Source of the DNA: an uncultured Sangeribacter sp.
GTDB lineage: Bacteria > Bacteroidota > Bacteroidia > Bacteroidales > Muribaculaceae
Length of the DNA: 64,000 nt
NCBI GenBank assembly: GCA_964637105.1
Contig: CAZWVY010000003.1
Location: forward strand, 373-64,372
Direction of reading: 5' to 3'
The first letter of the stretch is position 1. Every line of letters begins with the position of its first letter. Made by a program: the position numbers and the translations under genes. Shown one piece after another: positions 46,511 through 59,693 of this stretch. The notes under the pieces were generated by a model. It ran no database searches, was not told where the DNA came from, and saw nothing but the letters and a program-made list of their open reading frames with translations.

Positions 46511-49111
46511 ATGAACTTCAACAACTTCACAATTAAATCGCAGGAGGTTGTGCAGAAGGCTATCGAGCTTTGCCGGTCAAACGGCCAGCAGCTCATTGAG
46601 CCGGCCCACCTGCTTAAGGCCCTCATCGACGAGGCCGAGACCATCGTGAACTTCGTGTTCCAGAAGCTCGGCGCCAATCTCAATGCCGTCAAGACGGGCC
46701 TTGACCGCGACATCGCGGCCCTCCCCAAGGTCTCCGGAGGGGATGTGACCCTCAGCCGCGAGGCCAACGAAGCCCTGCAGAAGGCAGTGGATTTCTCCAA
46801 GTCAATGGGCGATGAGTATGTATCTGTAGAGGCCATGCTCATGGGCATTCTCAAGACCCGCTGCTCCGCTTCGCGCATCCTCAAGGATGCCGGAATCACC
46901 GAGGATGGCCTCAAGGCCGCTATCCAGGAGCTCCGAAAGGGCAACAAGGTGACACAGCAGAGCGCCGAGGAGTCATACCAGGCTCTTTCTAAATATGCCA
47001 TCAACCTCAATGACCGCGCCCGCAGCGGCAAGCTCGACCCGGTCATCGGCCGTGACGAGGAGATACGCCGCGTGCTCCAGATCCTTTCGCGTCGCACCAA
47101 GAACAATCCTATGCTCGTCGGCGAGCCCGGCACCGGTAAGACAGCCATCGCCGAGGGCCTGGCCCACCGTATCGTGCGCGGCGATGTGCCCGAGAACCTT
47201 AAGTCAAAACAGATTTACTCGCTCGATATGGGCGCACTCGTGGCCGGAGCGAAATACAAGGGCGAGTTTGAGGAGCGCCTCAAGGCTATCGTAAATGAGG
47301 TAACCCAGTCTGACGGCGAGATCATCCTCTTTATCGATGAGATCCACACTCTTGTAGGCGCCGGCAAGGGCGAGGGAGCTATGGATGCAGCCAATATCCT
47401 CAAGCCGGCGCTGGCGCGCGGCGAACTCCGCTCTATCGGCGCCACCACCCTCGACGAGTATCAGAAATATTTCGAGAAGGATAAGGCCCTCGAGCGCCGC
47501 TTCCAGAAGGTGATGGTCGATGAGCCTGACGAGATGTCTGCCATCTCCATCCTCCGCGGCCTCAAGGAGCGTTATGAAAACCATCACAAGGTGCGCATCA
47601 TGGATGAGGCTATCATAGCCGCCGTCCAGCTCTCTGTGCGCTACATCACAGACCGCTTCCTCCCCGACAAGGCTATCGACCTTATTGATGAGGCCGCTTC
47701 CAAGCTCCGCCTCGAGATGGACTCAATGCCCCAGGCCCTCGATGAGGCGCAACGCAAGATTGCGCAGCTCGAAATCGAGCGCGAGGCTCTTAAGCGTGAG
47801 GGCAACGACTACAAGATCAAGGAAATCGATGAGGACCTCGCCAACCTGCGCGACACCGAGAAGGCCATGAAGGCCAAGTGGCAGGCTGAGAAAAACGAGA
47901 TCAATAAGATTCAGCAGAACAAGATTGAAATTGAGCAGCTCAAGCATGAGGCCGAGATGGCCAAGCGCGAGGGTGACTATGCCAAGGTGGCTGAGATAGA
48001 ATACTCCAAGATCAAGCAGAAAGAGACTGAGAACGCCGAAATCCAGGAGCGCCTCAAGCAGCTCCAGGGCGAGGGCGCCATGATCAAGGAGGAGGTCGAT
48101 GCCGAGGATATCGCCGAGGTTGTCAGCCGCTGGACCGGAATACCTGTCAAGAAGATGGCCCAGAGCGAGAAGGAGAAACTGCTCCATCTCGAGGAGGAGC
48201 TCCACAAGCGCGTGGTCGGCCAGGATGCGGCCATCAAGGCAGTCAGCGACGCAGTGCGCCGCTCGCGCGCAGGCCTCAATGACCCGCGCCGCCCCTTAGG
48301 CTCGTTCATCTTCCTCGGCACCACCGGTGTCGGCAAGACGGAGCTCGCCAAGGCCCTCGCAGAATACCTCTTCGATGACGAGGATATGATGACCCGTATC
48401 GATATGTCAGAATACATGGAGAAGCACTCCGTGAGCCGACTGGTAGGAGCGCCTCCGGGATACGTCGGATACGAGGAGGGTGGCCAGCTCACTGAGGCAG
48501 TGCGCCGCAAACCTTACAGCGTCGTGCTCTTCGATGAGATAGAGAAGGCTAACCCGGATGTGTTCAACATCCTGCTGCAGGTGCTTGATGACGGCCGCCT
48601 CACAGACAACAAGGGCCGCTTCATCAACTTCAAGAACACCATTATTATCATGACCTCCAATGAGGGATCGCCCATTATCCGCGAGAACTTCAAGGACATC
48701 GACTCCAAGACTGAGGAGGAGCGTGAGAATGTCATCTCGAAGACCAAAGAGGATGTGCTCGACCTTCTGAAAATGAAGATCCGTCCCGAATTCCTCAACC
48801 GTATCGATGAGATTGTGATGTTCACACCTCTCAACAAGAAGGAGATTCAGGAGATTGTCGACATCCAGGTGAAGAGCGTCCAGAAGATGCTCGCCTCCAA
48901 CGGCGTAGAGCTTAAGATCACTAAACCTGCTCTTGAGCTCCTGGCTGAAGACGGCTACGATCCCGAATTCGGTGCACGTCCCGTGAAGCGCACCATCCAG
49001 CGCATGGTGCTCAACCAGCTCTCGAAGGACATCCTGGCGCAGAAGGTAGACCGCGACCATCCCATCGTCATCGATCGCGAAGGCGACGAACTGGTCTTCA
49101 AGAACCACTAA
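46511..49111 (+). CDS. clpB: Disaggregase ClpB
   Basis: Two AAA modules ([16 protein letters not shown]), a coiled-coil M domain and [12 protein letters not shown]. Confidence 0.97.
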
Positions 49112-49166: not shown

Positions 49167-49209
49167 TCCGCTTGTGCCGTCCCATATGCCCCCCTCATTG
49201 ATGAACCTT

Positions 49210-49378
49210 GCGGGCTGGAAGCCCGCCCTCCTTGACCACTCCCGCAATAGCACAAGGACTACCCAAGGACTGTCCAAGGACTGCGGGCTTCCAGCCCGCA
49301 ATAGCTTCCAGCCCGCAATAGCACAAGGACTGCGGGCTTCCAGCCCGCAATAGCTTCAGCCCGCACTCCTTGTGCTAC
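49210..49378. repeat. REP/BIME-like mosaic (family A, GCGGGCT-GGA-AGCCCGC)
   Basis: Full hairpins at 49210-49226, 49283-49299 and 49332-49348, plus half copies. CAAGGACT occurs 4 times and CCCGCAATAGC 4 times. A 20-bp IR (19/20) pairs 49319-49338 with 49358-49377. Confidence 0.88.
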
Positions 49379-49392
49379 TGCAGCCCCTCGTC

Positions 49393-49434
49393 ATAAAAAA
49401 GCGGGGCATCCGTTTGGATGCCCCGCTTTTTTAT
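49393..49434. terminator. Bidirectional intrinsic terminator
   Basis: ATAAAAAAGCGGGGCATCC-gttt-GGATGCCCCGCTTTTTTAT. Confidence 0.9.
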
Positions 49435-49460: not shown

Positions 49461-50618
49461 TTACTTCACGACCTTGACAGCCTTGCCGTTCTGCACGCGG
49501 ATGTACATTCCCTTCTCGGGGTTAGCCACGCGTACGCCCTGCATGTTGAAGTAAACAGCCTCGCCGTTGGCAGCTGCGATTACGTTGATGCCAGTCTCTA
49601 CGTCGATGACGCGGATTTCGTTGGTAGCGCAGTTGAACTCTACGTTATACTCGCTGTTCTCAGTAGCGCCATCGATTGTCATGTTAGCATCCCAGTTGTC
49701 GGGGATAGCATAGAACTCCTGAGTCTGGAGAGCCTGGCCGTTGGAGTGCCATACATCAGCTGCGCCGTTCCAAACCTTTACCTTGAAGCCGCTGGTGCCG
49801 ATGGGAAGTGACTCGTGCATGGATACACCCTCCTCATTGGGGTTGACACCATTGTCAAGCCAGTTGTTGAAGTCGCCGAGCACGTTTACATACCATGTGG
49901 TGTAGTCGGTCTCGATTATCTGGCCGCCCTCACCTGTGATAGTGAGCTCTGCAGTGTCGAGGTTGAAAGTAAGAACAGCGTTCTCAACATTCATACCCAT
50001 TGCCATGTTGTTGCTATTGTTATAGTAGCAGACATAGGGAGTGTTCAGTTCCATGGCATTGATACCGGAGCTGTAGTTTACGTCAGCCCAGTCAGCATCA
50101 GCAATCTTGAACTCCTGACCGGCAACGAGGTTAGCGACTTTAAGCTCGAACACATTGTTACCCTTGTCAGTAAACTTGTACTCATCTGTTGCACCCCAGC
50201 CGTTCATTGCGCCGCGGAGGTACATGACAGTCTCTGTGGGAGGAACAACGATTTCGCCGCCGAGACCGTTTACGGTCAGCAGATTGTTGTTGGTGTCGAG
50301 AGTGAAAGTCACATTGGTCACCTCCTCAGTGAAACGGAAGTTCTGACCGTCCTGACGCAGACCGTAGTCACCGTTCTCTGTGATGTTTTTGATGCCGCTT
50401 GCGTCAGCGCCGAGGTTAGTTGTCCAGCCTGCATCCTTACGGAACTTAAACTGACCCTTGAGGGATTCCATGGTAACAGTGAACACGCCGGACTCAGTCT
50501 CGGTCATGTCAACATCACCTGCCCAGCTGTTGAACTCGCCGATGACACCCCATCCGGCGTTTGCGCTACCTGCGGTCAGGAAGAGACCGGCAGCGAGTGC
50601 GAGTAAACCTTTCTTCAT
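49461..50618 (-). CDS. Secreted protein with three SusE/F-like carbohydrate-binding repeats and a T9SS-type C-terminal domain
   Basis: Sec signal peptide; three G-x-(F/M)-N-x-W repeats with FK(F/I/V) strands; tail TGI...YFNMQGVRVANPEKGMYIRVQNGKAVKVVK. Confidence 0.7.
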   Translation of the reverse strand: MKKGLLALAAGLFLTAGSANAGWGVIGEFNSWAGDVDMTETESGVFTVTMESLKGQFKFRKDAGWTTNLGADASGIKNITENGDYGLRQDGQNFRFTEEVTNVTFTLDTNNNLLTVNGLGGEIVVPPTETVMYLRGAMNGWGATDEYKFTDKGNNVFELKVANLVAGQEFKIADADWADVNYSSGINAMELNTPYVCYYNNSNNMAMGMNVENAVLTFNLDTAELTITGEGGQIIETDYTTWYVNVLGDFNNWLDNGVNPNEEGVSMHESLPIGTSGFKVKVWNGAADVWHSNGQALQTQEFYAIPDNWDANMTIDGATENSEYNVEFNCATNEIRVIDVETGINVIAAANGEAVYFNMQGVRVANPEKGMYIRVQNGKAVKVVK

Positions 50619-50784: not shown

Positions 50785-50792
50785 CAAAGGTA
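50785..50792 (-). promoter_or_regulatory. -7 element for the triple-CBM gene
   Basis: TACCTTTG on the minus strand, about 165 nt above the ATG. Confidence 0.6.
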
Positions 50793-50860
50793 ATATCTTT
50801 TTACGAAATAATGGTTATAATTTTTTAAAATTAACTTTTATTAACAATTAGGAGGGGCTT

Positions 50861-51235
50861 AGAAGTGGCGGAGGCGCAGCAGTGGCGGAGGCTTTCTTGC
50901 CTCCGCGTGCAGGAGTGGAGTGGATGGTGATGCAGACCTGTAAGTTCCTGCGGGTCTCTGACCCGCAGTTCCAATAAACACCCTCAGAGGATGATGAAGT
51001 CGTGCGCTGAGAATTAGGGCTGCGGGTCAGAGACCCGCAGGAACTTACAGTACGGCGACACCATCAGGGAAATATTAAGGAGGCTGGAAGCCTCCTCTAC
51101 TTTTGCGGAGGCTGGAAGCCTCCTCTACTTTTGCGGAGGCTGGAAGCCTCCTCTACTTTTGCGGAGGCTGGAAAGCCTCCTCTACTTTTGCGGAGGCTGG
51201 AAAGCCTCCGCCACTGTTGCGCCTCCGCCACTTCT
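50861..51235. repeat. Nested REP/REPIN-like composite element (375 bp)
   Basis: Outer 36-bp IR (50861-50896 / 51200-51235, 35/36 match); inner perfect 31-bp IR (50938-50968 / 51020-51050); 28-29 bp tandem array from 51079. Confidence 0.9.
51079..51209. repeat. Tandem array GGAGGCTGG(A)AAGCCTCCTCTACTTTTGC, 4 units plus a partial
   Basis: Units at 51079, 51107 and 51135 (28 bp), 51163 (29 bp), and a partial at 51192. Confidence 0.95.
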
Positions 51236-51249
51236 TGCTTCCGCCGGTG

Positions 51250-52128
51250 TTACAGCTGGGTGTAGGGGATGTCCCAGGTGGACCAGGCCGTCGGGTCGCC
51301 GCTCTGGATGCCCCGCTTGAACCAGGTGACGCGCTGCGCGCTGCGGCCATGGTTGAAGCTCTCCGGCATCTCCCTCCCGTAGGCTTTCTTCTGCAGGTAG
51401 TCGTCGCCTATCTTGGAGGCGGCATTCAGGGCGTTCTCTATGTCACCCGGCTCGATGCTGCCAAACATTTCGTTGTCGTTATATCCCCACACTCCCGCCA
51501 GGTAATCGGCCTGCAACTCTATGCGGACACTCACTTTGTTGGCCTCCGTCTCACTCATCTTCGCCATCTGTCCGTGCGCTTCGGAGAGTATTCCCAACTG
51601 ATCCTGCACATGATGCCCGACTTCGTGGGCTATGACGTATGCATATGTGAAATCACCGTCGGCCCCTATGTCGCGCCGCATGTTCTTGAAGAAGTCAAGG
51701 TCGAGATATATCGTCTTGTCGGCCGAGCAGTAGAAGGGGCCGGTCTGAGCCGTGCCGTGGCCGCAACCGGTCTGGATGCTCCCACGGTATATGACCATCT
51801 TGGGGGGCGTATATGTCCCCCACCCCTGCCGCTTGAACTCGCGCGTCCACACATCTTCGGTGCCGGCAAGCACTTTGGAGGCAAGGTCGAACAGACGCTG
51901 CTCCTCCGGGGAATCAGCCTCGGGTGCGGAGGTCTGCTCGGTGAGGCCGGTCAACTGGCCGGAGCCGATGACATTGCTCACCACATCCCCGATGCTTCCG
52001 CCGGAAAGCAGTGTGAAGATGGCTCCGATCACTACGGCGAGGATGCCCCCGCCTACTCCAACTGCGCGGCCCGACACGTGGCGCCGGTCGCTGACATTGC
52101 TGCTGGTTCGTCTTCCGTCAAGTCTCAT
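51250..52128 (-). CDS. Neutral zinc metallopeptidase (YpfJ family)
   Basis: Motifs SSNVSDRR, GPFYCSAD, YVIAHEVGHHVQ, ELQADYLAG and HGRSAQR. Confidence 0.92.
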   Translation of the reverse strand: MRLDGRRTSSNVSDRRHVSGRAVGVGGGILAVVIGAIFTLLSGGSIGDVVSNVIGSGQLTGLTEQTSAPEADSPEEQRLFDLASKVLAGTEDVWTREFKRQGWGTYTPPKMVIYRGSIQTGCGHGTAQTGPFYCSADKTIYLDLDFFKNMRRDIGADGDFTYAYVIAHEVGHHVQDQLGILSEAHGQMAKMSETEANKVSVRIELQADYLAGVWGYNDNEMFGSIEPGDIENALNAASKIGDDYLQKKAYGREMPESFNHGRSAQRVTWFKRGIQSGDPTAWSTWDIPYTQL

Positions 52129-52208
52129 AATATATGTGGTTCGTCAAAGGTTAAACGGTGGTTATGCTTCCTCCCTCAGGCTGCCGCGGAGTGCGGCCGA
52201 CGTGTGAG

Positions 52209-55200
52209 TCATCGCGCCAGCGACATCTGGACTGATATGCCGAAATCGGTGTTGCTCGTCGGATAGGAGTTGTTCGACACCAGGGGATTGTTGGTCTGGT
52301 GATCGAAGTAGGCTCCGATGGTCAGGCGCTTGCTCAGCTGATAGTTGGCCATGAAGTTGACCGAGAAGGTCTGCGTTCCCTGAGTGGCCTGCGTGTAGGC
52401 GGTCTCAATGCGGCGGATGAGCGTGGCATTGTTGGCAAACGACAGGTCAAGGTTGAGCGACAGGTCATTGCTCACGCTCCCCTGCTTCGACCCGATCTTG
52501 AGTATCTTGGCGAAGTTGGCAATCTTGAATCCGGCGCCGATGGTGAGCTGGCGTGTGCCGGTCTCCACCACCTGTCCTGCGGCAGAGTTGAGGTTGAGGG
52601 TGCGTGCGTCGTTGTATTCGGCCTTAACTGACAAGTCATTCTTGAAGGTCATGTTGACTCCGAGCAGCGGTCCGAACTTCTCCGTGATGGCCACGCTCGA
52701 GACGTTGTAGGGCGATGACGGTATGGGAGCCTGCGAGAGCTCGTCGAATGTGAAGCCGAGGTTGCCACCTATGCCTACCCAGTTGAGATAGCTGCCGTAG
52801 GACCCGATGCTGTATGTGCACTGGTATGCATGGCTGAGGGTGAAGGATTTGAAGATGTTCTTCATGTTTCCTACCTGCAGGAGGCCGTCGTAGGTCACCT
52901 TCCAGTTGGGGAGCATTGAGGCTATGCCGGGGAAGAGGTCCAGGGTGATGCGGTCGGGATTCTGGCCGCTGTATGCGGCGATGAATGCCGGGATGAGCAC
53001 ATCCGAAGAGGTCGGGCTGACGCTTCCAACCTCCGGATTATAGGTGGTGCCTCCGAGGGGATTGTCCTCCATGAAGCCGGAGGTCGGGTATGACGTGCCC
53101 CGGTAGAGCTGTTCATAGCGGGCCGATACCTTCGGGATATACTCGAGGAACCGGTCGAAGGCGTCAGACTGATAGCCGTTGTCGGCCTTGCTGCTGCGCA
53201 GGGCCGTGGCGATGGCCACATGCGTGCGGGTATAGTTGCCGCTGCGGGCCGTAGGCATGCCGGCAAACATGAACTGCACCTGGCGGGTGCGGTTGTCCGT
53301 CAGATTGTCGGTCAGCGTGATCTTGAGTCCGCGGATAGGCTCGAGGGTAAGCTCGAAATGGAACTCGCTTCCCTGGTTCCACACGGCCGGGGAGGTCTGC
53401 TCGGGATTGGTCAGGAGCCAGCCGCGGTCAAGGGCCTGCTGCACATAGCTCTCGTCATAGAATCCGAAGGCAAACCCGAGGCCCGGGGCCATGGGGCCGT
53501 ACTTGGTCGACTGGCCGAAGATGTCGCCGATATTGGGCGAGAACTGCGGCAGGGTCAGCGAGTGGGACGAGCGCCAGCGGAAGGAGAGGTTGCGAGGGCT
53601 CATGAGCAGGCGCAGGCTGTAATCCCGCATTTCGTGCAGGATATTCTTCTTTTCCTTCTTTTCAGCCTCGCGCACGGTCACAGATACCGAGTGGCTGCCG
53701 CGCGTCAGGATTTCGATGGTGTTCTCATCCACTACCCTGGTCTCGAGTTTGAAGGGATTGCCGCCGTTGGTGGCGGTGATTTTGACATCCTTGTTCTTCA
53801 TGTTGTGCTTGACCAGCGTGGTGGTGTCGGGAGAAAGATTGATGACCCTCACATATTTCTTGGGCTTCTGTCCTTTCCCCTTGCCGGAGCTCGAGCGGTT
53901 TCCTCCGCGATTGCCCGATGAGGCGAAACGGCTGTTGATATCCTTGAGCAGCTTCGACTTATTGAAGAGGCCCTCGAAGTTGAAACGGGCATCGGCATTC
54001 CAGGTAGACTGGTTGCTGATTGAGTTGCCCAGATAGAGGTCATCCACGGTGGTGCCGCGGTCCCAGGCGTATGTAGAGGTATATGTGACGGACCCCTGCA
54101 GGAAGTCCATGAAGGGTATCTTGTTGAAAGGAGCGCGGTAGGAACCGGTGAAGGTCTGGTTGTAGTTCCAAGGAGTGCCGAAGCCCTTGATGCTGCTCCA
54201 TACTGTATCTTTCCAGTCGCGGTATTGGTCCGGGAAGAGCTTCTTGTTGACCGCTCCTACAGTCTCCTCGATACGCGCCGTGGTGTTAGAGGAGAAGCTC
54301 AGCGAGAGCGACTGGATGAGATTCCAGGTGATGGACATCTGGCGGTTCCAGAGGAAGTTCTTGCTGACCTGCACGGGGAGCTCCACATCGACATCCACTT
54401 CGTTGCGGCTCTGCTGCTCGTAGTAATGGCGGTTCATCGAGGTGAAGAGGGTGAGGTTGTTGAAGAGCCAGTTGATCTGCCAGTCTTTGAGAAACTGCAC
54501 GAACTTCGACTTGGAGTCGCCCCCTATCTTGCTGAAGGGCTTCCAGGGCTTGATCATCGGCGAATAGCTGTATTGCAGCGAGCCTCGGTAATCGCTCGTG
54601 TTCTCGTAAGCAGTCGTGGGGTCAACGTCCCTCTGCTTGGCAAAGGAGAAGGCGGCCTGGAAGTTAGCGGGATCCCAGGGCATCGGAGTCTTGCTCTGAA
54701 CGTTGAAACGGAGGTTGGAGATGGAGAAGTTTTCCGTGACGCGGCGCGTCATGGCATAGTTGTTGATAGAGTCGCGCTCCTGCTTGGTGGCGGCGGCGTC
54801 GAGGGCATCCTTGAGCAGCACATCCTGGTCGAGAGGGTTGTATTTCGGTGTTGTGGTCTCCTGCGAGCGCGAATAATAGATAGGAGCCGCGAGCTTGGCC
54901 TTCTCGGGCATGATTTTGCCCAAGTCGCCCTGCACGGCCACGTTATAGAGGTCATAGGTCTCCATGCGCCGCGAGGCGAGGCTCTGGTCTACGCCTCCGA
55001 AGCCGTCCGACTCGTGATGGAAGTTGAAATTCACACTCGCCACATCGGAGAGCGACAGATTGGCGGTGCCTTTGGCTGCCCAGCCGCCGCTCTGGTTGAA
55101 GTCTGTCACCTTGAGTTCATTGACCCAGATGGTGCCATCCTTGACGGACGCCGACTTGTTGCGCACGCCTATGAGCATGGTGCGCACATCGCTCAGCGAG

Positions 55201-58200
55201 GGGTTGCCGAGCACCGATACCGTGTTGCGGGCATTGTCGGGGTCGAGCATGGAGAAGAGTGTGGTGTACCCTATTCCGGGCTCGCCGAGCCCTTTGCGGT
55301 GGTTGCGCTCGGTCTTGACCTTCGTGAAGACATCGAAGGGGACATTCATGAAGTTGGAGATGGGCCACACCATAGCTCTGTCGGCCGAACTGAAGTTATT
55401 GTAGTTGCCAGCCGGAGTCAGCTCCAGGGGAATCTCATACTCATAATAGTTGTTTTTGACATCGCTGCCGAGGCGCACGAAGAGGGCCAAGTCGCCATTC
55501 TTAAGGTCAGTGATATTGTCTATCAGAGCCTCGGCGTGCACCCACATCTGCATGCGGCGGTAGATGCGCAGGTCAAGCTGCGTGTTCTTGTATATGCCGC
55601 GCGCGTCACCGGGCTGCAGTCCGGTGACCTTCAGGGAGAGCGACTGCTCGTTGAGCTGCGTGGCCTGCGACTGGCCGGGGTCCTGCACGCGGGTCACGCC
55701 GGGAGGGAGCACGTAGTTGACGGGCGTGCGGGTGCCATTCTCCTCAATGTTGACCACCGACATATCCAGCTCACCCTCTGCGGGCGAGTCGTTGCGGCTG
55801 TTGAGGTTGAAGGCATAGTCGCGCCATTCGCCGCGCACCAGCTCGAGGGTGGCGAAGCGGAGATGGGTGGGCTTTTGGAATCCGGTCATGAACATGCGGG
55901 CGAAGCGCACGGTAGAGAAATCGTTGATGTCGCCGACCACTCGGTCAGGGCTGCTCAAAGGTATCTTGAACTGATACCACACCACGCGGGTGCGTCCCTC
56001 GCGGGTGGGCTGCTCAGACTCCTGGATGTCGGTTATGTAGTTGCGGCCGACCACGAGGTCCTCGGGACGGATCGACACCTTATACTCGAAATAGCGCTCA
56101 TACTCGTTGAGCGTGTTGTCCTGGTTGATGTCCTCGACATCGGGGGTGGAGCGCGATGACTGGTACTGAGTGTTGTCGCTCTGGTCAGGCGACAGGGAGT
56201 TGCCCTCCACGCCGTTATAGCGTTTGTAGCGGTCCAGGATGCCGGCGCGGATATTGTCGTAGTAATCCGAGCGGTAGAAATGGTAGTTGTCGCCCGCGGG
56301 GTCGTTCATGGGCGAGAAGGGATCCTCCTGCATGGACGCGATGGTTGTGGCCGGAAGACGCTGGCGCAGAGCCTCAACATACTCGCCGTAGGAGGGGAAG
56401 GAATACTCGGCGTCATTGGGGAGGCCGTCGAGGCCCACGTCCTGGCGGGGGCGGGCGTTGGCTGAATTCTCGAAGGCGTAGGTGAGCGAGTTCTGGCGCG
56501 ACACGCGGCCCCAGGCCGTCTCGGTCATGAACTCCTCGTTACCGTCGATAGGTATGCCGTTCTCGTAGCTCTTCATGCCATCCTTGAGGATGTCCTCACT
56601 GATTTCGCCGAAGTTGAAATAGAGGTCTCCCCCTTCATAGTTCGGATTCTCCTCATCCAGGAAGGGGTCGAGCAGCCAGAACTGCAGGTACTCCACGTTG
56701 GAGGCCTCGAAGTTCGTGTTGTCCATCTTGCGCATGATGCCTCCCCAGCGCTTCTCGGGATGCAGCAGGGCGCCATCCTGGTCGATGTCGGTGACGTCCA
56801 GGTTGTAAGGGCCGCGCTCAGTCGGGTAGAAACTGAGGTTGAGCGTCTGGATATAATTCGCCTCGCCGTAATTGAGGTCGCGGGCCGGGAAAATCTCGTT
56901 GACCGTCACCTCGCGTATATAGGGATTGGAGAGCTGGTGAAGGTCATTTTTGAGATAGCCGGGTATGGATGAGGAATTCTTCTGTGTGAAGATGCGGTCG
57001 ATGTAGTTCCAGGCAAGCAGGGCGCGGTTTTTGCCGTAATCCACATTGTTTGACAGCTGGGCCTCGGGGAAGAGCGCTGAGGCGCTGTTGTCCCACGGGG
57101 TGGAGGCGAGCTGCCAGCTGTAAGGCGACCGCAGGTCGATGGCCGTCTGCGTGCTCTCGAAGTCATCTATATAGCTCGAGCCGGATGCTGAGCCGCTCTT
57201 CTGGCCGTGCGGCACGAGCTGGGCAAACTCGGCATTGAGATTGAACGTCGAGGGGGCCGTGGCATTGATGGTCGGCACCTTGGCCAGAAGGTTGGTGAGC
57301 CACATGAAGGATTTGTTGTAGCTCAGGTTGACACCGAACATCGAGTTATTGATCACCTCATCGCCGATGTTCACCTTCTCCGTGAGCGATTTCTCGGAGA
57401 AGTGCAGCAGCGAGGCGCCGAGTGTGAAGTCTTTATTGAAGCGGTACTGGGCATCCAGGCCGAGCAGGGTCTTGCGCTGCATGGAGAACATTGACTGGTT
57501 CTCAAGCGAGACGCTGACGTTGGTGCCCGAGTCGATGATGCTCTGGTTGGTGATGGTGACTATGCCCATGGTGTAGTCCACGGTATAGTCGCTGTTCTCC
57601 TGGAGCACGACGCCTCCGGCCATTACCCGCACGGAGCCTCGAGGCACGTTCATGGCGTTGAGGCGGATCTGGCTTCCCTTTGACGACTGGAACTCGCCGA
57701 CGAGCGAGAACTTGTTCTTGTCGGCAAACTGGCGCGCTACGACAAGCGTGGAGTCATACAGCTCCTTATATACGTAGGGGGCGGCAAGATCTTTATTGCC
57801 TATGCGCCTCTCGAGGTTGGAGCCGAAGGGCTCGGCCACAGGGAATATGATGCGGCCCGTGGCAGACTGGACGGTGTATCCCTCGATATAGTCGAAAAAA
57901 CCGTCGGCGTTTGACTCGCCGTTGGAGTCGATGCGGTCAGCGTTCATCACCTGAAGCAGGGGCACGTTGGCTATGTCGCCGACCTGAATGTATGACACTT
58001 CGGTTCCCGTCGTGTCAGACAGGAACTTTACGTTGAGCTTGAAGTTCTGCTTCTGGAGCTGGGTGGCGTTGAGGTTGTAGACGTTCTTCATCATCAGCTT
58101 CCACATCGGGAGCTTGGGAGAGACGGTCGTGCCGCGCAGCATCTTGAGGTAAAGCGACTGGTCAGTGGAGGTGACATCGCCGGAGAACTCGCCGACCTGA

Positions 58201-59693
58201 TAGACCTTTCCCTGCCAGGTGTATTCGTAGGCCACAGCCAACACCTCGTCCGTGCGCAGGGCCTGCTTGAGGGAGATGTAGCCGAGCGTGGAGTTGAGGG
58301 TGTATTCGCTCTTGGTGAGCAGGCGCGCGCTCTCCACCTTCTCGAAGTCGCGGCCTCCGCGTATGCCGTAGGCCTGGAGAGGCTCGAGAGCCTGCGTCAC
58401 CTTATTTATGTTTCGCGCCTCGGGATACTCATTCTTTATGACCGTGAGCAGGTCGTTGCTGTTGTTTGAAGGGACCGGTATGGAGGTGTCGGGAATCCAG
58501 TAGTCGGTGGCCAGGCGCGTCTGCTCGCCGAGGTCCATGAAGGCCACGAAGTTGCGGCTCTCCTGGTAGTTGTTGCTCTTATTGGTCACCCACACCTCGA
58601 TGCGCGTGATGTTGATGCCCGAAGAGACATGCGGCAGGCGCGAGGCAAACTGGTCATAGTTGTCGTAGAAGTATTGGCCGAGGAAGAAGTGGCGGTTGTC
58701 GTCATAGTCATCGGCCTTGATGGTGAAGGGAGACTTCTGTATGCCGCCGGTGGTGTTGATGGTCTTCGACTCGCTGTTCTGCTGGCTGATGAGGCCCGTA
58801 AGGGTCAGCTTGCCAAACTGCAGCTTGGTCTTCACGCCGAAGAGGGCCGTGCCTCCGCGTATCAGGCTCGACCCGGTGGTCATGGAGACGTTGCCCGCCT
58901 CGAGCGACTTGATAATCTCGTCCTCCTTGCCCTCATAGCCGAGCTTGATGTTCTTCGAGTCGAAGTCGAAAGTAGCGTCGGTGTTGTAGGTCATGTTGAA
59001 CTTCAGCTTGTCGCCGACAGAGGCGGCCACCGTGGCCTGTATCTTCTGGTCGAGATCGAAGAAGGTCTTGCGGCGCGAACGCAGCGAGAGCGAGGGATTG
59101 TCAGTCTTGTTGCTCTTGATGCCCATCTTGATCTGGGCGGTTCCCTGTGTGGTAAGGCGCACGCCTCCCGGGCCGAACACCTTCTCCAGGGGGCCGAGAG
59201 CGAAGTTCATGTCGAGGATGTCAAACGGCTGCTTACCCTTGTCGGCCACTGCTGCGGCATTCTGCTCGCGGAAGTATTGGTAGAGGTCGCGGCGGTTCTG
59301 CATCTCATGATACTCGTCAGCCTTCATCATGAAGGGGGTGACAAGCTCAGTCTGCCCGAGGCGCGTGCGTATGACATACATGCCCGTCTCGGGATCGTAG
59401 GTCGCCTCGGTCTTGATGTTCTCGGGAGTGGTCAGGTCAGCCACATACTCGCGGTCCATATACTCCTCCATGTTGAGGGGCAGAGTAGTCTGCACCGGCG
59501 AGGGGAGTATCACGCTGTCGGGTATCTCGGTGCCCGGCAGGTATTCCGACTCCGCAGGAGGCGGCGGTGGAGGCGGGGGTATCGATGGGGCTTTCTGGTA
59601 TTGAGAGAAAGTCAGCAAAGTGCCCGACAGCGCCATGACAGGCGTTGCCAGCATCAGCGCGGCGTTGCGGATTTTCCTTAATACGTTCTTCAA
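52209..59693 (-). CDS. sprA: Type IX secretion system translocon SprA (Sov)
   Basis: 2494-aa outer-membrane protein with YNTDATFDF, KRWGGIMR, EDINQDNTLNEYERY, HLRFATLELVRGEWR, IWVNELK and PNWKVTYDGL; located directly after ruvA. Confidence 0.95.
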   Translation of the reverse strand: MKNVLRKIRNAALMLATPVMALSGTLLTFSQYQKAPSIPPPPPPPPAESEYLPGTEIPDSVILPSPVQTTLPLNMEEYMDREYVADLTTPENIKTEATYDPETGMYVIRTRLGQTELVTPFMMKADEYHEMQNRRDLYQYFREQNAAAVADKGKQPFDILDMNFALGPLEKVFGPGGVRLTTQGTAQIKMGIKSNKTDNPSLSLRSRRKTFFDLDQKIQATVAASVGDKLKFNMTYNTDATFDFDSKNIKLGYEGKEDEIIKSLEAGNVSMTTGSSLIRGGTALFGVKTKLQFGKLTLTGLISQQNSESKTINTTGGIQKSPFTIKADDYDDNRHFFLGQYFYDNYDQFASRLPHVSSGINITRIEVWVTNKSNNYQESRNFVAFMDLGEQTRLATDYWIPDTSIPVPSNNSNDLLTVIKNEYPEARNINKVTQALEPLQAYGIRGGRDFEKVESARLLTKSEYTLNSTLGYISLKQALRTDEVLAVAYEYTWQGKVYQVGEFSGDVTSTDQSLYLKMLRGTTVSPKLPMWKLMMKNVYNLNATQLQKQNFKLNVKFLSDTTGTEVSYIQVGDIANVPLLQVMNADRIDSNGESNADGFFDYIEGYTVQSATGRIIFPVAEPFGSNLERRIGNKDLAAPYVYKELYDSTLVVARQFADKNKFSLVGEFQSSKGSQIRLNAMNVPRGSVRVMAGGVVLQENSDYTVDYTMGIVTITNQSIIDSGTNVSVSLENQSMFSMQRKTLLGLDAQYRFNKDFTLGASLLHFSEKSLTEKVNIGDEVINNSMFGVNLSYNKSFMWLTNLLAKVPTINATAPSTFNLNAEFAQLVPHGQKSGSASGSSYIDDFESTQTAIDLRSPYSWQLASTPWDNSASALFPEAQLSNNVDYGKNRALLAWNYIDRIFTQKNSSSIPGYLKNDLHQLSNPYIREVTVNEIFPARDLNYGEANYIQTLNLSFYPTERGPYNLDVTDIDQDGALLHPEKRWGGIMRKMDNTNFEASNVEYLQFWLLDPFLDEENPNYEGGDLYFNFGEISEDILKDGMKSYENGIPIDGNEEFMTETAWGRVSRQNSLTYAFENSANARPRQDVGLDGLPNDAEYSFPSYGEYVEALRQRLPATTIASMQEDPFSPMNDPAGDNYHFYRSDYYDNIRAGILDRYKRYNGVEGNSLSPDQSDNTQYQSSRSTPDVEDINQDNTLNEYERYFEYKVSIRPEDLVVGRNYITDIQESEQPTREGRTRVVWYQFKIPLSSPDRVVGDINDFSTVRFARMFMTGFQKPTHLRFATLELVRGEWRDYAFNLNSRNDSPAEGELDMSVVNIEENGTRTPVNYVLPPGVTRVQDPGQSQATQLNEQSLSLKVTGLQPGDARGIYKNTQLDLRIYRRMQMWVHAEALIDNITDLKNGDLALFVRLGSDVKNNYYEYEIPLELTPAGNYNNFSSADRAMVWPISNFMNVPFDVFTKVKTERNHRKGLGEPGIGYTTLFSMLDPDNARNTVSVLGNPSLSDVRTMLIGVRNKSASVKDGTIWVNELKVTDFNQSGGWAAKGTANLSLSDVASVNFNFHHESDGFGGVDQSLASRRMETYDLYNVAVQGDLGKIMPEKAKLAAPIYYSRSQETTTPKYNPLDQDVLLKDALDAAATKQERDSINNYAMTRRVTENFSISNLRFNVQSKTPMPWDPANFQAAFSFAKQRDVDPTTAYENTSDYRGSLQYSYSPMIKPWKPFSKIGGDSKSKFVQFLKDWQINWLFNNLTLFTSMNRHYYEQQSRNEVDVDVELPVQVSKNFLWNRQMSITWNLIQSLSLSFSSNTTARIEETVGAVNKKLFPDQYRDWKDTVWSSIKGFGTPWNYNQTFTGSYRAPFNKIPFMDFLQGSVTYTSTYAWDRGTTVDDLYLGNSISNQSTWNADARFNFEGLFNKSKLLKDINSRFASSGNRGGNRSSSGKGKGQKPKKYVRVINLSPDTTTLVKHNMKNKDVKITATNGGNPFKLETRVVDENTIEILTRGSHSVSVTVREAEKKEKKNILHEMRDYSLRLLMSPRNLSFRWRSSHSLTLPQFSPNIGDIFGQSTKYGPMAPGLGFAFGFYDESYVQQALDRGWLLTNPEQTSPAVWNQGSEFHFELTLEPIRGLKITLTDNLTDNRTRQVQFMFAGMPTARSGNYTRTHVAIATALRSSKADNGYQSDAFDRFLEYIPKVSARYEQLYRGTSYPTSGFMEDNPLGGTTYNPEVGSVSPTSSDVLIPAFIAAYSGQNPDRITLDLFPGIASMLPNWKVTYDGLLQVGNMKNIFKSFTLSHAYQCTYSIGSYGSYLNWVGIGGNLGFTFDELSQAPIPSSPYNVSSVAITEKFGPLLGVNMTFKNDLSVKAEYNDARTLNLNSAAGQVVETGTRQLTIGAGFKIANFAKILKIGSKQGSVSNDLSLNLDLSFANNATLIRRIETAYTQATQGTQTFSVNFMANYQLSKRLTIGAYFDHQTNNPLVSNNSYPTSNTDFGISVQMSLAR

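Follow-up and report, generated by a model that had tools for sequence, protein, structure and literature searches.

A run of five short hairpin units, arranged head to tail beyond the 3' end of a zinc metallopeptidase gene in an uncultured Sangeribacter sp., carries the letters of a Bacteroides-type promoter consensus in its tails. The locus raises the question of whether these units are promoters in series, firing antisense into the metallopeptidase gene with an output tuned by their number, as the original prediction proposed, or whether the promoter letters arise incidentally within a repeat of another kind. The window analysed is a stretch of 64,000 nucleotides, whose coordinates equal those of contig C3 minus 372; G000 denotes the window's own genome, and C numbers denote its contigs. 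We consider that the array is probably an ordinary REP/BIME-like cluster that underwent recent local amplification, and that its likeness to promoters is incidental.

Structure of the repeat locus

The genes neighbouring the array include those for a ROK kinase, ClpB, YpfJ, SprA, RuvA and RecR (Table 1). Since 14 nt separate the stop codon of ypfJ from the composite element that contains the array, the array belongs to the ypfJ 3' flank. The composite element also lies upstream of the next minus-strand gene, which encodes a 385-aa secreted protein and has a -7 box of its own with a context score of 17.9, the 47th percentile of native promoters. On the + strand, no gene start was found within 9 kb downstream of the array, and there is no co-oriented target gene. 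A + strand ORF of 387 aa (51103-52266) was rejected as a shadow of ypfJ, because codon scoring and Pfam favoured the minus strand.

Table 1. Genes, repeats and promoter-like sites around the array (window coordinates)
Feature	Position	Strand	Remarks
ClpB	46511-49111	+	
385-aa secreted protein	49461-50618	-	
Native-looking -7 box TACCTTTG, preceded by AAAAAGATAT	50785-50792	-	belongs to the gene for the 385-aa secreted protein
Outer inverted repeat, left arm	50861-50906	-	one family-1 REP module in opposite orientation; hairpin 50887-50904
Inner palindromic element (repeat family 3)	50923-51065	.	arms 50923-50975 and 51013-51065
Five head-to-tail REP units (family 1)	51079-51220	+	hairpin GGAGGCT-GGA(A)-AGCCTCC plus 11-nt tail each
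Promoter-like site 1, TTTG-N20-TACTTTTG	51102-51133	+	consensus match
Promoter-like site 2, TTTG-N20-TACTTTTG	51130-51161	+	consensus match
Promoter-like site 3, TTTG-N21-TACTTTTG	51158-51190	+	the only site without a further terminator-like unit downstream
Outer inverted repeat, right arm	51190-51235	+	unit 5 plus half unit; repeat search
Terminal half unit GCCTCCGCCACTTCT	51221-51235	+	adjoins unit 5
YpfJ-type zinc metallopeptidase	51250-52128	-	PF04228, E=7e-94; NF050010
SprA	52209-59693	-	

Tandem Repeats Finder delimited the array at 51079-51221, with a period of 28, 5.0 copies, 96% matches and a score of 247. Direct reading gives units of 28, 28, 28, 29 and 29 nt, starting at 51079, 51107, 51135, 51163 and 51192, a copy number of five that rests on one short-read MAG contig. 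Units 1-3 are identical 28-mers (GGAGGCTGGAAGCCTCC+TCTACTTTTGC), and unit 4 (GGAGGCTGGAAAGCCTCC+TCTACTTTTGC) differs from them by one inserted A in the loop; unit 5 combines the hairpin of unit 4 with the tail GCCACTGTTGC. In a search of the window's own genome, the TCTACTTTTGC tail was confined to this array. Each unit has a 7-bp GC stem and a loop of 3-4 nt, with hairpin energies from -11.9 to -13.7 kcal/mol, and its total length of 28-29 nt falls within the 20-40 nt of REP/BIME repeats. The expectation of a tandem array of REP type was thereby borne out, the dispersed family and the GTRG foot being described below.

The whole array lies inside a nested palindrome of 375 bp (50861-51235), composed of REPs and of a second kind of palindromic repeat. 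Its outer inverted-repeat arms are 46 nt long and 93% complementary in the repeat search. The inner arms are 53 nt long and 85% complementary, and each contains a small palindrome, CTGCGGGTC...GACCCGCAG. We interpret the composite as BIME/REPIN-like, in that two inverted REP modules enclose the second kind of palindromic repeat.

A dispersed REP family and its distribution

A BLAST search with the 386-bp region against its own genome (2.75 Mb, 143 contigs) gave more than 220 matches. The REP of the array (family 1) occurs in 82 copies at no more than one mismatch, or as 120 oriented units by a looser definition, and has the canonical form tttac-GGAGGCTGGAAAGCCTCC-GCYACTTYTGG. In 95 of the 120 units the tail reads GCYAC (complement GTRGC), and in 18 it reads TCTAC. 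Read on the other strand, it supplies a GT[AG]G foot, as expected of a GTAG-type REP, since this foot defines the GTAG super-family (PMC3733652).

Only two of 79 family-1 units lie in coding sequence. Among 31 REP-bearing spacers, whose orientation was taken from gene calls made by codon-usage scoring, 10 are convergent, compared with a 12% share genome-wide, 19 are tandem and 2 divergent. Family-1 REPs are mostly located at gene 3' ends, and are extragenic and dispersed, in the manner of REP/BIME repeats.

Head-to-tail arrangement is not peculiar to the window. Other arrays have periods of 28-49 nt (for example C1:7693, C8:11910, C8:14627, C67:14259 and C103:2906), and C121:4457 and C16:24785 each have a dimer with the compact 28-nt period. 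The TACTTTTGC junction of the window array recurs in a paralogous array at C54:12247. The natural compact period of the family, an 18-nt hairpin followed by a tail of 10-11 nt, is 28-29 nt. We propose that the array arose by tandem amplification of one unit of this genome-wide, selfish-type family, most likely through slippage during replication or unequal exchange between direct repeats with hairpins.

Exact-protein look-ups with both flanking genes retrieved 14 contigs of identical sequence from other samples. Contigs from ten other samples were identical in the overlap, and every contig retrieved ends within the array or at one of the palindromes; because these assemblies break in the array, the unit number is unreadable from them. 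Exact-protein look-up of two small ORFs spanning the array gave no match. The unit junction GCCTCCTCTACTTTTGCGGAGGC had 0 matches in genome_contigs and 0 in metagenome_contigs, and the left junction of the array had 0 matches in metagenome_contigs. The canonical REP with its tail had two unrelated single matches in genome_contigs.

Comparison of the orthologous locus in 40 relatives showed a match at the coding end of ypfJ only, and the spacer was not conserved. G003, the closest relative that matched, has a convergent gene in the spacer after ypfJ. In this spacer (G003:C57, about 1360-1450), a run of short GGTTTTAGG-like repeats stands in place of REPs.

Among 60 sampled same-genus species, 55 contained 0 family-1 copies. 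Of the other five, four contained 7-19 copies of a hairpin-core variant and the fifth a single copy. In the copies sampled from G019, G021, G022 and G007, the hairpin core GGAGGCTGGGAAGCCTCC is joined to another flank, which ends in CCATA. The presence of the core with a CCATA tail in four same-genus species points to an element different from family 1. Judged by this distribution, the family-1 REP is species- or lineage-restricted.

Possible role of the 3' structure

An effect of the element, if any, is more likely to be exerted on the minus-strand transcript, through its very stable 3' structure. The fold computed for 50850-51250 as minus-strand RNA has an energy of -253 kcal/mol, compared with -138 ± 5 for shuffles (z = -22.5). 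REPs of E. coli are described as a barrier to 3' exonucleases or as an aid to termination, and by analogy the structure after ypfJ could act in either way.

A stronger version of this idea is that the host uses the structure after the fashion of E. coli BIMEs, either as a site where gyrase or an IHF/HU-like protein docks, or as a selected 3' stabiliser or terminator of the sprA-ypfJ mRNA. Its position directly after the ypfJ stop codon, the extreme folding energy of the minus strand and the enrichment of the family at gene 3' ends all agree with such a use. So does the lack of a canonical terminator between ypfJ and the next promoter, except for a weak one at 50979-50993, compared with the textbook bidirectional terminator that follows clpB (49397-49432, AAAAAAGCGGGGCATCC...GGATGCCCCGCTTTTTT). 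However, no U run follows the array hairpins on the minus strand, and the spacer is not conserved in same-genus relatives. We therefore regard host use of the structure as unlikely, and favour the simpler reading of an amplified REP/BIME-like cluster.

Promoter-like letters in the unit tails

The consensus for sigma-ABfr is TTTG at -33 and TAnnTTTG at -7 (cited in PMC7366714). The array contains TACTTTTG, a match to TAnnTTTG, in four tails (51098-51105, 51126-51133, 51154-51161 and 51183-51190), and its sites combine this -7 box with a -33 TTTG at a distance of 19-21 nt. In these respects the original prediction was accurate: its box coordinates and TTTG gaps are exact, giving three sites with spacers of N20, N20 and N21. 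The TAC of the box is indeed the complement of the REP GTAG foot, as seen in CTAC at 51097-51100, and the sites face the 3' end of the zinc metallopeptidase gene, which encodes a protein of YpfJ type. The proposal that each unit ends in a box, so that n units create n-1 promoters, holds for the four box-bearing units and fails for the fifth; because unit 5 lacks a box, five units yield only three complete sites. Promoters of this type are expected to start transcription about 4-8 nt after the box; the predicted + strand starts, about 6 nt after the boxes, are at about 51139, 51167 and 51196.

In family 1 as a whole, TACTTT occurs in register in 29 of 120 tails. It is followed by TG in 4 of 17 loci, and the -7 box is no commoner in REP tails than expected by chance. 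The box-bearing loci are the window array, C54:12267, C84:4508 and C127:2825; all four face gene ends and none faces a gene start. The locus on C127 (G000:C127:2825-2857, minus strand) has a single REP between TTTG and TACTTTTG (N21) and so forms another complete promoter consensus. Its context is equally poor (-11.5), and it faces a gene end in a convergent spacer.

The promoter letters of the array are probably a by-product of how the REP is built. On the opposite strand the GTAG foot appears as CTAC, with a T-rich tail after it; the TTTTGC variant of the junction, which is two changes away from the usual compact junction CTACTTTAC, completes TAnnTTTG, and the compact period of 28-29 nt then puts the preceding TTTG at the -33 distance. 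Because the box occurs at chance level and the compact period is natural to the family, such a coincidence is not improbable for one of about ten arrays.

Comparison with native promoters

The genome does use this promoter type. Genome-wide, sense-strand TAnnTTTG is most frequent at 20-60 nt upstream of ATGs. There are 208 exact matches to the full motif, about 30-fold more than the roughly 7 expected from base composition by an arithmetic estimate, and 190 of the 208 matches are intergenic, most of them aimed at gene starts. An exact -33 TTTG at N19-21 accompanies only 78 of 298 gene-proximal -7 boxes. In native promoters an A/T tract 4-9 nt upstream of the box, at -16 to -11 counted from its final G, is strongly conserved, with C at no more than 3% at -14, -13 and -11. 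They are also A/T-rich before the -33 element, and have A at the third box position and CA right after TTTG.

The array sites lack the native A/T tract, having GCCTCC in its place, as well as the A/T-rich stretch before -33 and the CA after the box, and they have C at positions where native promoters have C at no more than 3%. The GC content of their spacers is 0.67-0.70, compared with 0.2-0.45 in typical full-motif sites.

Context was scored with two models, one built on the non-fixed positions only and the other anchored on the box and built on 298 gene-proximal boxes; the score is a correlate of promoters, and not a measure of promoter activity. With the first model, the three array sites scored -21.1, -19.6 and -12.6, below all of the 70 native N20 full-consensus sites (5th percentile +9.0, median +17.2) and comparable to random sequence (-19.9 ± 8.3). 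With the box-anchored model, the four array boxes scored -10 to -12, which ranks them near the 2nd percentile among gene-proximal boxes and near the 60th among boxes located inside genes. Among full-consensus sites with a context above +5, 149 of 193 face gene starts. Seven other full-consensus sites have a context below -5; one of these faces a gene start, two are directed at gene ends and the remaining four are intragenic.

The reading under which the units form a stack of active sigma-ABfr promoters, directed on the + strand antisense to the ypfJ 3' end, with sprA beyond, and with an output set by the unit number, draws on three letter-perfect sites of a consensus that is strongly over-represented in the genome and mostly associated with promoters. 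Antisense starts are moreover common in Bacteroides, accounting for 24% of the TSSs in B. thetaiotaomicron (PMC7366714). Against this reading stand the random-like non-fixed positions with GCCTCC in the place of the A/T tract, the lack of association with genes among comparable low-context consensus sites, the absence of box enrichment in REP tails, none of which is aimed at a gene start, and the lack of conservation of the locus in relatives.

The geometry of the array presents a further difficulty. On the + strand, every array unit was flagged as a terminator-like hairpin followed by a T run, and such a hairpin follows each predicted start on the same strand. If transcription began about 6 nt after a box, its first nucleotide would belong to the 5' arm of the following hairpin. 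RNA made from either of the first two sites would then encounter intact units of hairpin plus U run, and only the last site, with its start near 51196, would have a free path into ypfJ. Promoters 28 bp apart fall within one polymerase footprint, and closely spaced ones cannot act independently. Because transcripts from upstream units would meet the terminator-like hairpins of later units, and because the footprints at this spacing would overlap, output should not scale with unit number.

The promoter stack is thus quite unlikely, and two parts of the original prediction fare poorly: working + strand promoters are at odds with the random-like context and the terminator-like hairpins of that strand, and the tuning of antisense output by copy number with the later units and the overlapping footprints. 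On the reading that we prefer, an amplified REP/BIME-like cluster, little or no productive + strand transcription is predicted. The + strand sites are probably silent or negligible. There is a small chance that at least the last site initiates measurably, and it is most improbable that unit number tunes an antisense RNA of biological meaning. A perfect core might nevertheless drive some initiation despite its poor context, since the exact consensus is a strong predictor genome-wide, and weak antisense initiation from the array may occur.

The REP consensus, TTTAC-hairpin-GCTACTTYTG, is one or two substitutions short of TTTG-N21-TAnnTTTG. Family 1 thus provides a permanent supply of near-promoter sequences for the sigma factor of Bacteroidota. 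A bolder reading makes the family a reservoir of proto-promoters, which at this locus would have been turned by substitutions and the 28-nt period into a real antisense stack of variable copy number, directed against ypfJ-sprA; we consider this very unlikely. If the promoters were active, the array would be a case of a selfish repeat seeding regulated antisense transcription in Bacteroidota, with the unit number as its dial. For promoter prediction, the array advises caution: the minimal TTTG/TAnnTTTG consensus is insufficient, and here it is the A/T-rich context that cleanly separates native promoters from chance matches.

Inversion and small RNA readings

Invertible promoters are common in Bacteroidales (PMC8748976), and the inverted repeats of 46 nt (93%) bracket the promoter-like sites of the array. 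Recombination between these outer repeats would invert 50907-51189 and make the sites face the start of the gene for the 385-aa secreted protein, giving phase variation. However, the arms are ordinary copies of a REP present in 80-120 copies, with no dedicated site, and the gene already has a promoter of native quality. None of the seven neighbouring genes encodes a recombinase. In four other samples, contigs extend across the left outer arm in the orientation of the window with 0 mismatches, and none shows the inverted form, which is weak evidence because contigs drop rare variants. An inverton is highly improbable here.

A + strand small RNA of CsrB/RsmW type, with GGA loops sequestering CsrA, has next to no chance of being correct and is refuted for practical purposes by the lack of a CsrA gene in the genome: the Rfam scan of the array region gave no match above threshold, but only sub-threshold RsmW and miRNA models, and although the RsmW match (51100-51222, + strand, E=0.007) has GGA in each loop, its 32.7 bits are below the gathering threshold of 52 bits, and the loop is a family-wide REP feature present on both strands.

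Relation to known repeat systems

The family resembles the REP/BIME/REPIN elements that accompany RAYT (TnpA_REP) proteins in Enterobacteria and Pseudomonas. It has in common with them a GC-rich hairpin with a 7-bp stem, an unpaired GT[AG]G foot, and a preference for gene 3' ends among its tens to hundreds of extragenic copies. Inverted partners likewise cluster into larger hairpins, sub-families show compensatory changes in the stem, and the genome contains a RAYT-like gene that is flanked by inverted REP pairs.

This RAYT-like gene (G000:C72:3708-4388) matches PF01797 above the cut-off and NF047646 with E=1e-14, which is below the 80-bit cut-off. It contains the motifs of a tyrosine transposase, NHVH (HuH) and YIHKN (Y). 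On either side of it lie inverted pairs of a sister REP, GCGGGCTGGAAGCCCGC, which has the GGCTGGAAGCC core in common with family 1 and a GGAGC foot. In this the genome differs from known REP and RAYT systems, as the gene is flanked by the sister REP and not by family 1; no RAYT gene flanked by the exact family-1 REP was found in its own assembly, which is 91% complete.

TnpA_REP subclass 2.6 (Bertels group 5) is found in Bacteroidetes and is associated with 'atypical secondary structures' (Quentin 2018, PMC6006769). Its published motifs are NH[LIV]H and YIH[QN]NP (PMC6006769), to which NHVH and YIHKN are close. The phylum is the same, and in both cases the hairpins on either side of the gene have further copies elsewhere in the genome. 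By its motifs only, the RAYT-like gene resembles this subclass. The tandem arrays and the promoter-like tails lie outside the published description of the subclass (PMC6006769).

In the survey of GTAG REPs, tandemly reiterated clusters were described (Di Nocera 2013, PMC3733652), whereas head-to-tail dimers were absent or rare in most of the families surveyed (PMC3733652); head-to-tail arrays are frequent here. The hosts differ as well: the survey reported GTAG repeats from Proteobacteria, Cyanobacteria, Chloroflexi and the PVC group, while Bacteroidetes yielded CGTC repeats only (PMC3733652), whereas the present host belongs to the Bacteroidota, as its SprA and its use of promoters also indicate. 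With family 1, a REP family that has a GTAG/GTGG foot and frequently forms head-to-tail arrays is documented for a phylum with hardly any descriptions of such repeats.

The array units also invite comparison with intrinsic (Rho-independent) terminators. On the + strand they likewise have CUACUUUUG after a GC-rich hairpin of -12 to -14 kcal/mol, but no + strand gene ends upstream of them, and the U run is short and interrupted. Genuine terminators of the window, such as the one at 49397-49432, have longer stems and flanking runs of A and T.

A further parallel is provided by the Correia elements (CREE) of Neisseria, whose promoters were reportedly shown by experiment by Siddique, Buisine and Chalmers in 2011 to act on adjacent genes. 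These, too, are dispersed miniature repeats with an end that resembles the host promoter consensus, and their insertions or variants can create promoters. In the present case, by contrast, the context is poor, no gene lies downstream, and the likeness to promoters is known from sequence alone.

Other repeats in the window and genome

Two further repeat families co-occur with family 1. One is a second REP family (GCGGGCTGGAAGCCCGC, the sister REP of the RAYT-like gene), of which a cluster with CCTCCTTG/CAAGGA as the foot occupies 49209-49375 of the window, directly beyond the stop codon of clpB. The cluster includes a 17-nt tandem stretch at 49287-49365, identified with Tandem Repeats Finder.

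The other, repeat family 3, a palindrome of about 107 nt with about 50 copies in the genome, supplies the inner element of the composite. It is built on CTGTAAGTTCCTGCGGGTC...GACCCGCAG and often adjoins family-1 REPs. Examples occur at G000:C18:3584-4155 and C11:18569-18679, and on C18 the family forms tandem arrays with a period of about 143 nt.

In a six-frame search of the genome, a 333-aa ORF (G000:C65:4044-5045) gave a weak Y1_Tnp match (21 bits, below the cut-off). As a protein it had no Pfam match, and it is flanked by other short direct repeats (AAATACGGCCAACTGCACCAATG, three times). A hairpin array of a different kind is present at G000:C17:16776-16857, where three units of 33 nt each consist of GGAGGCTGAAGCCGCC and GGGCAGTGTGGGGCTCC.
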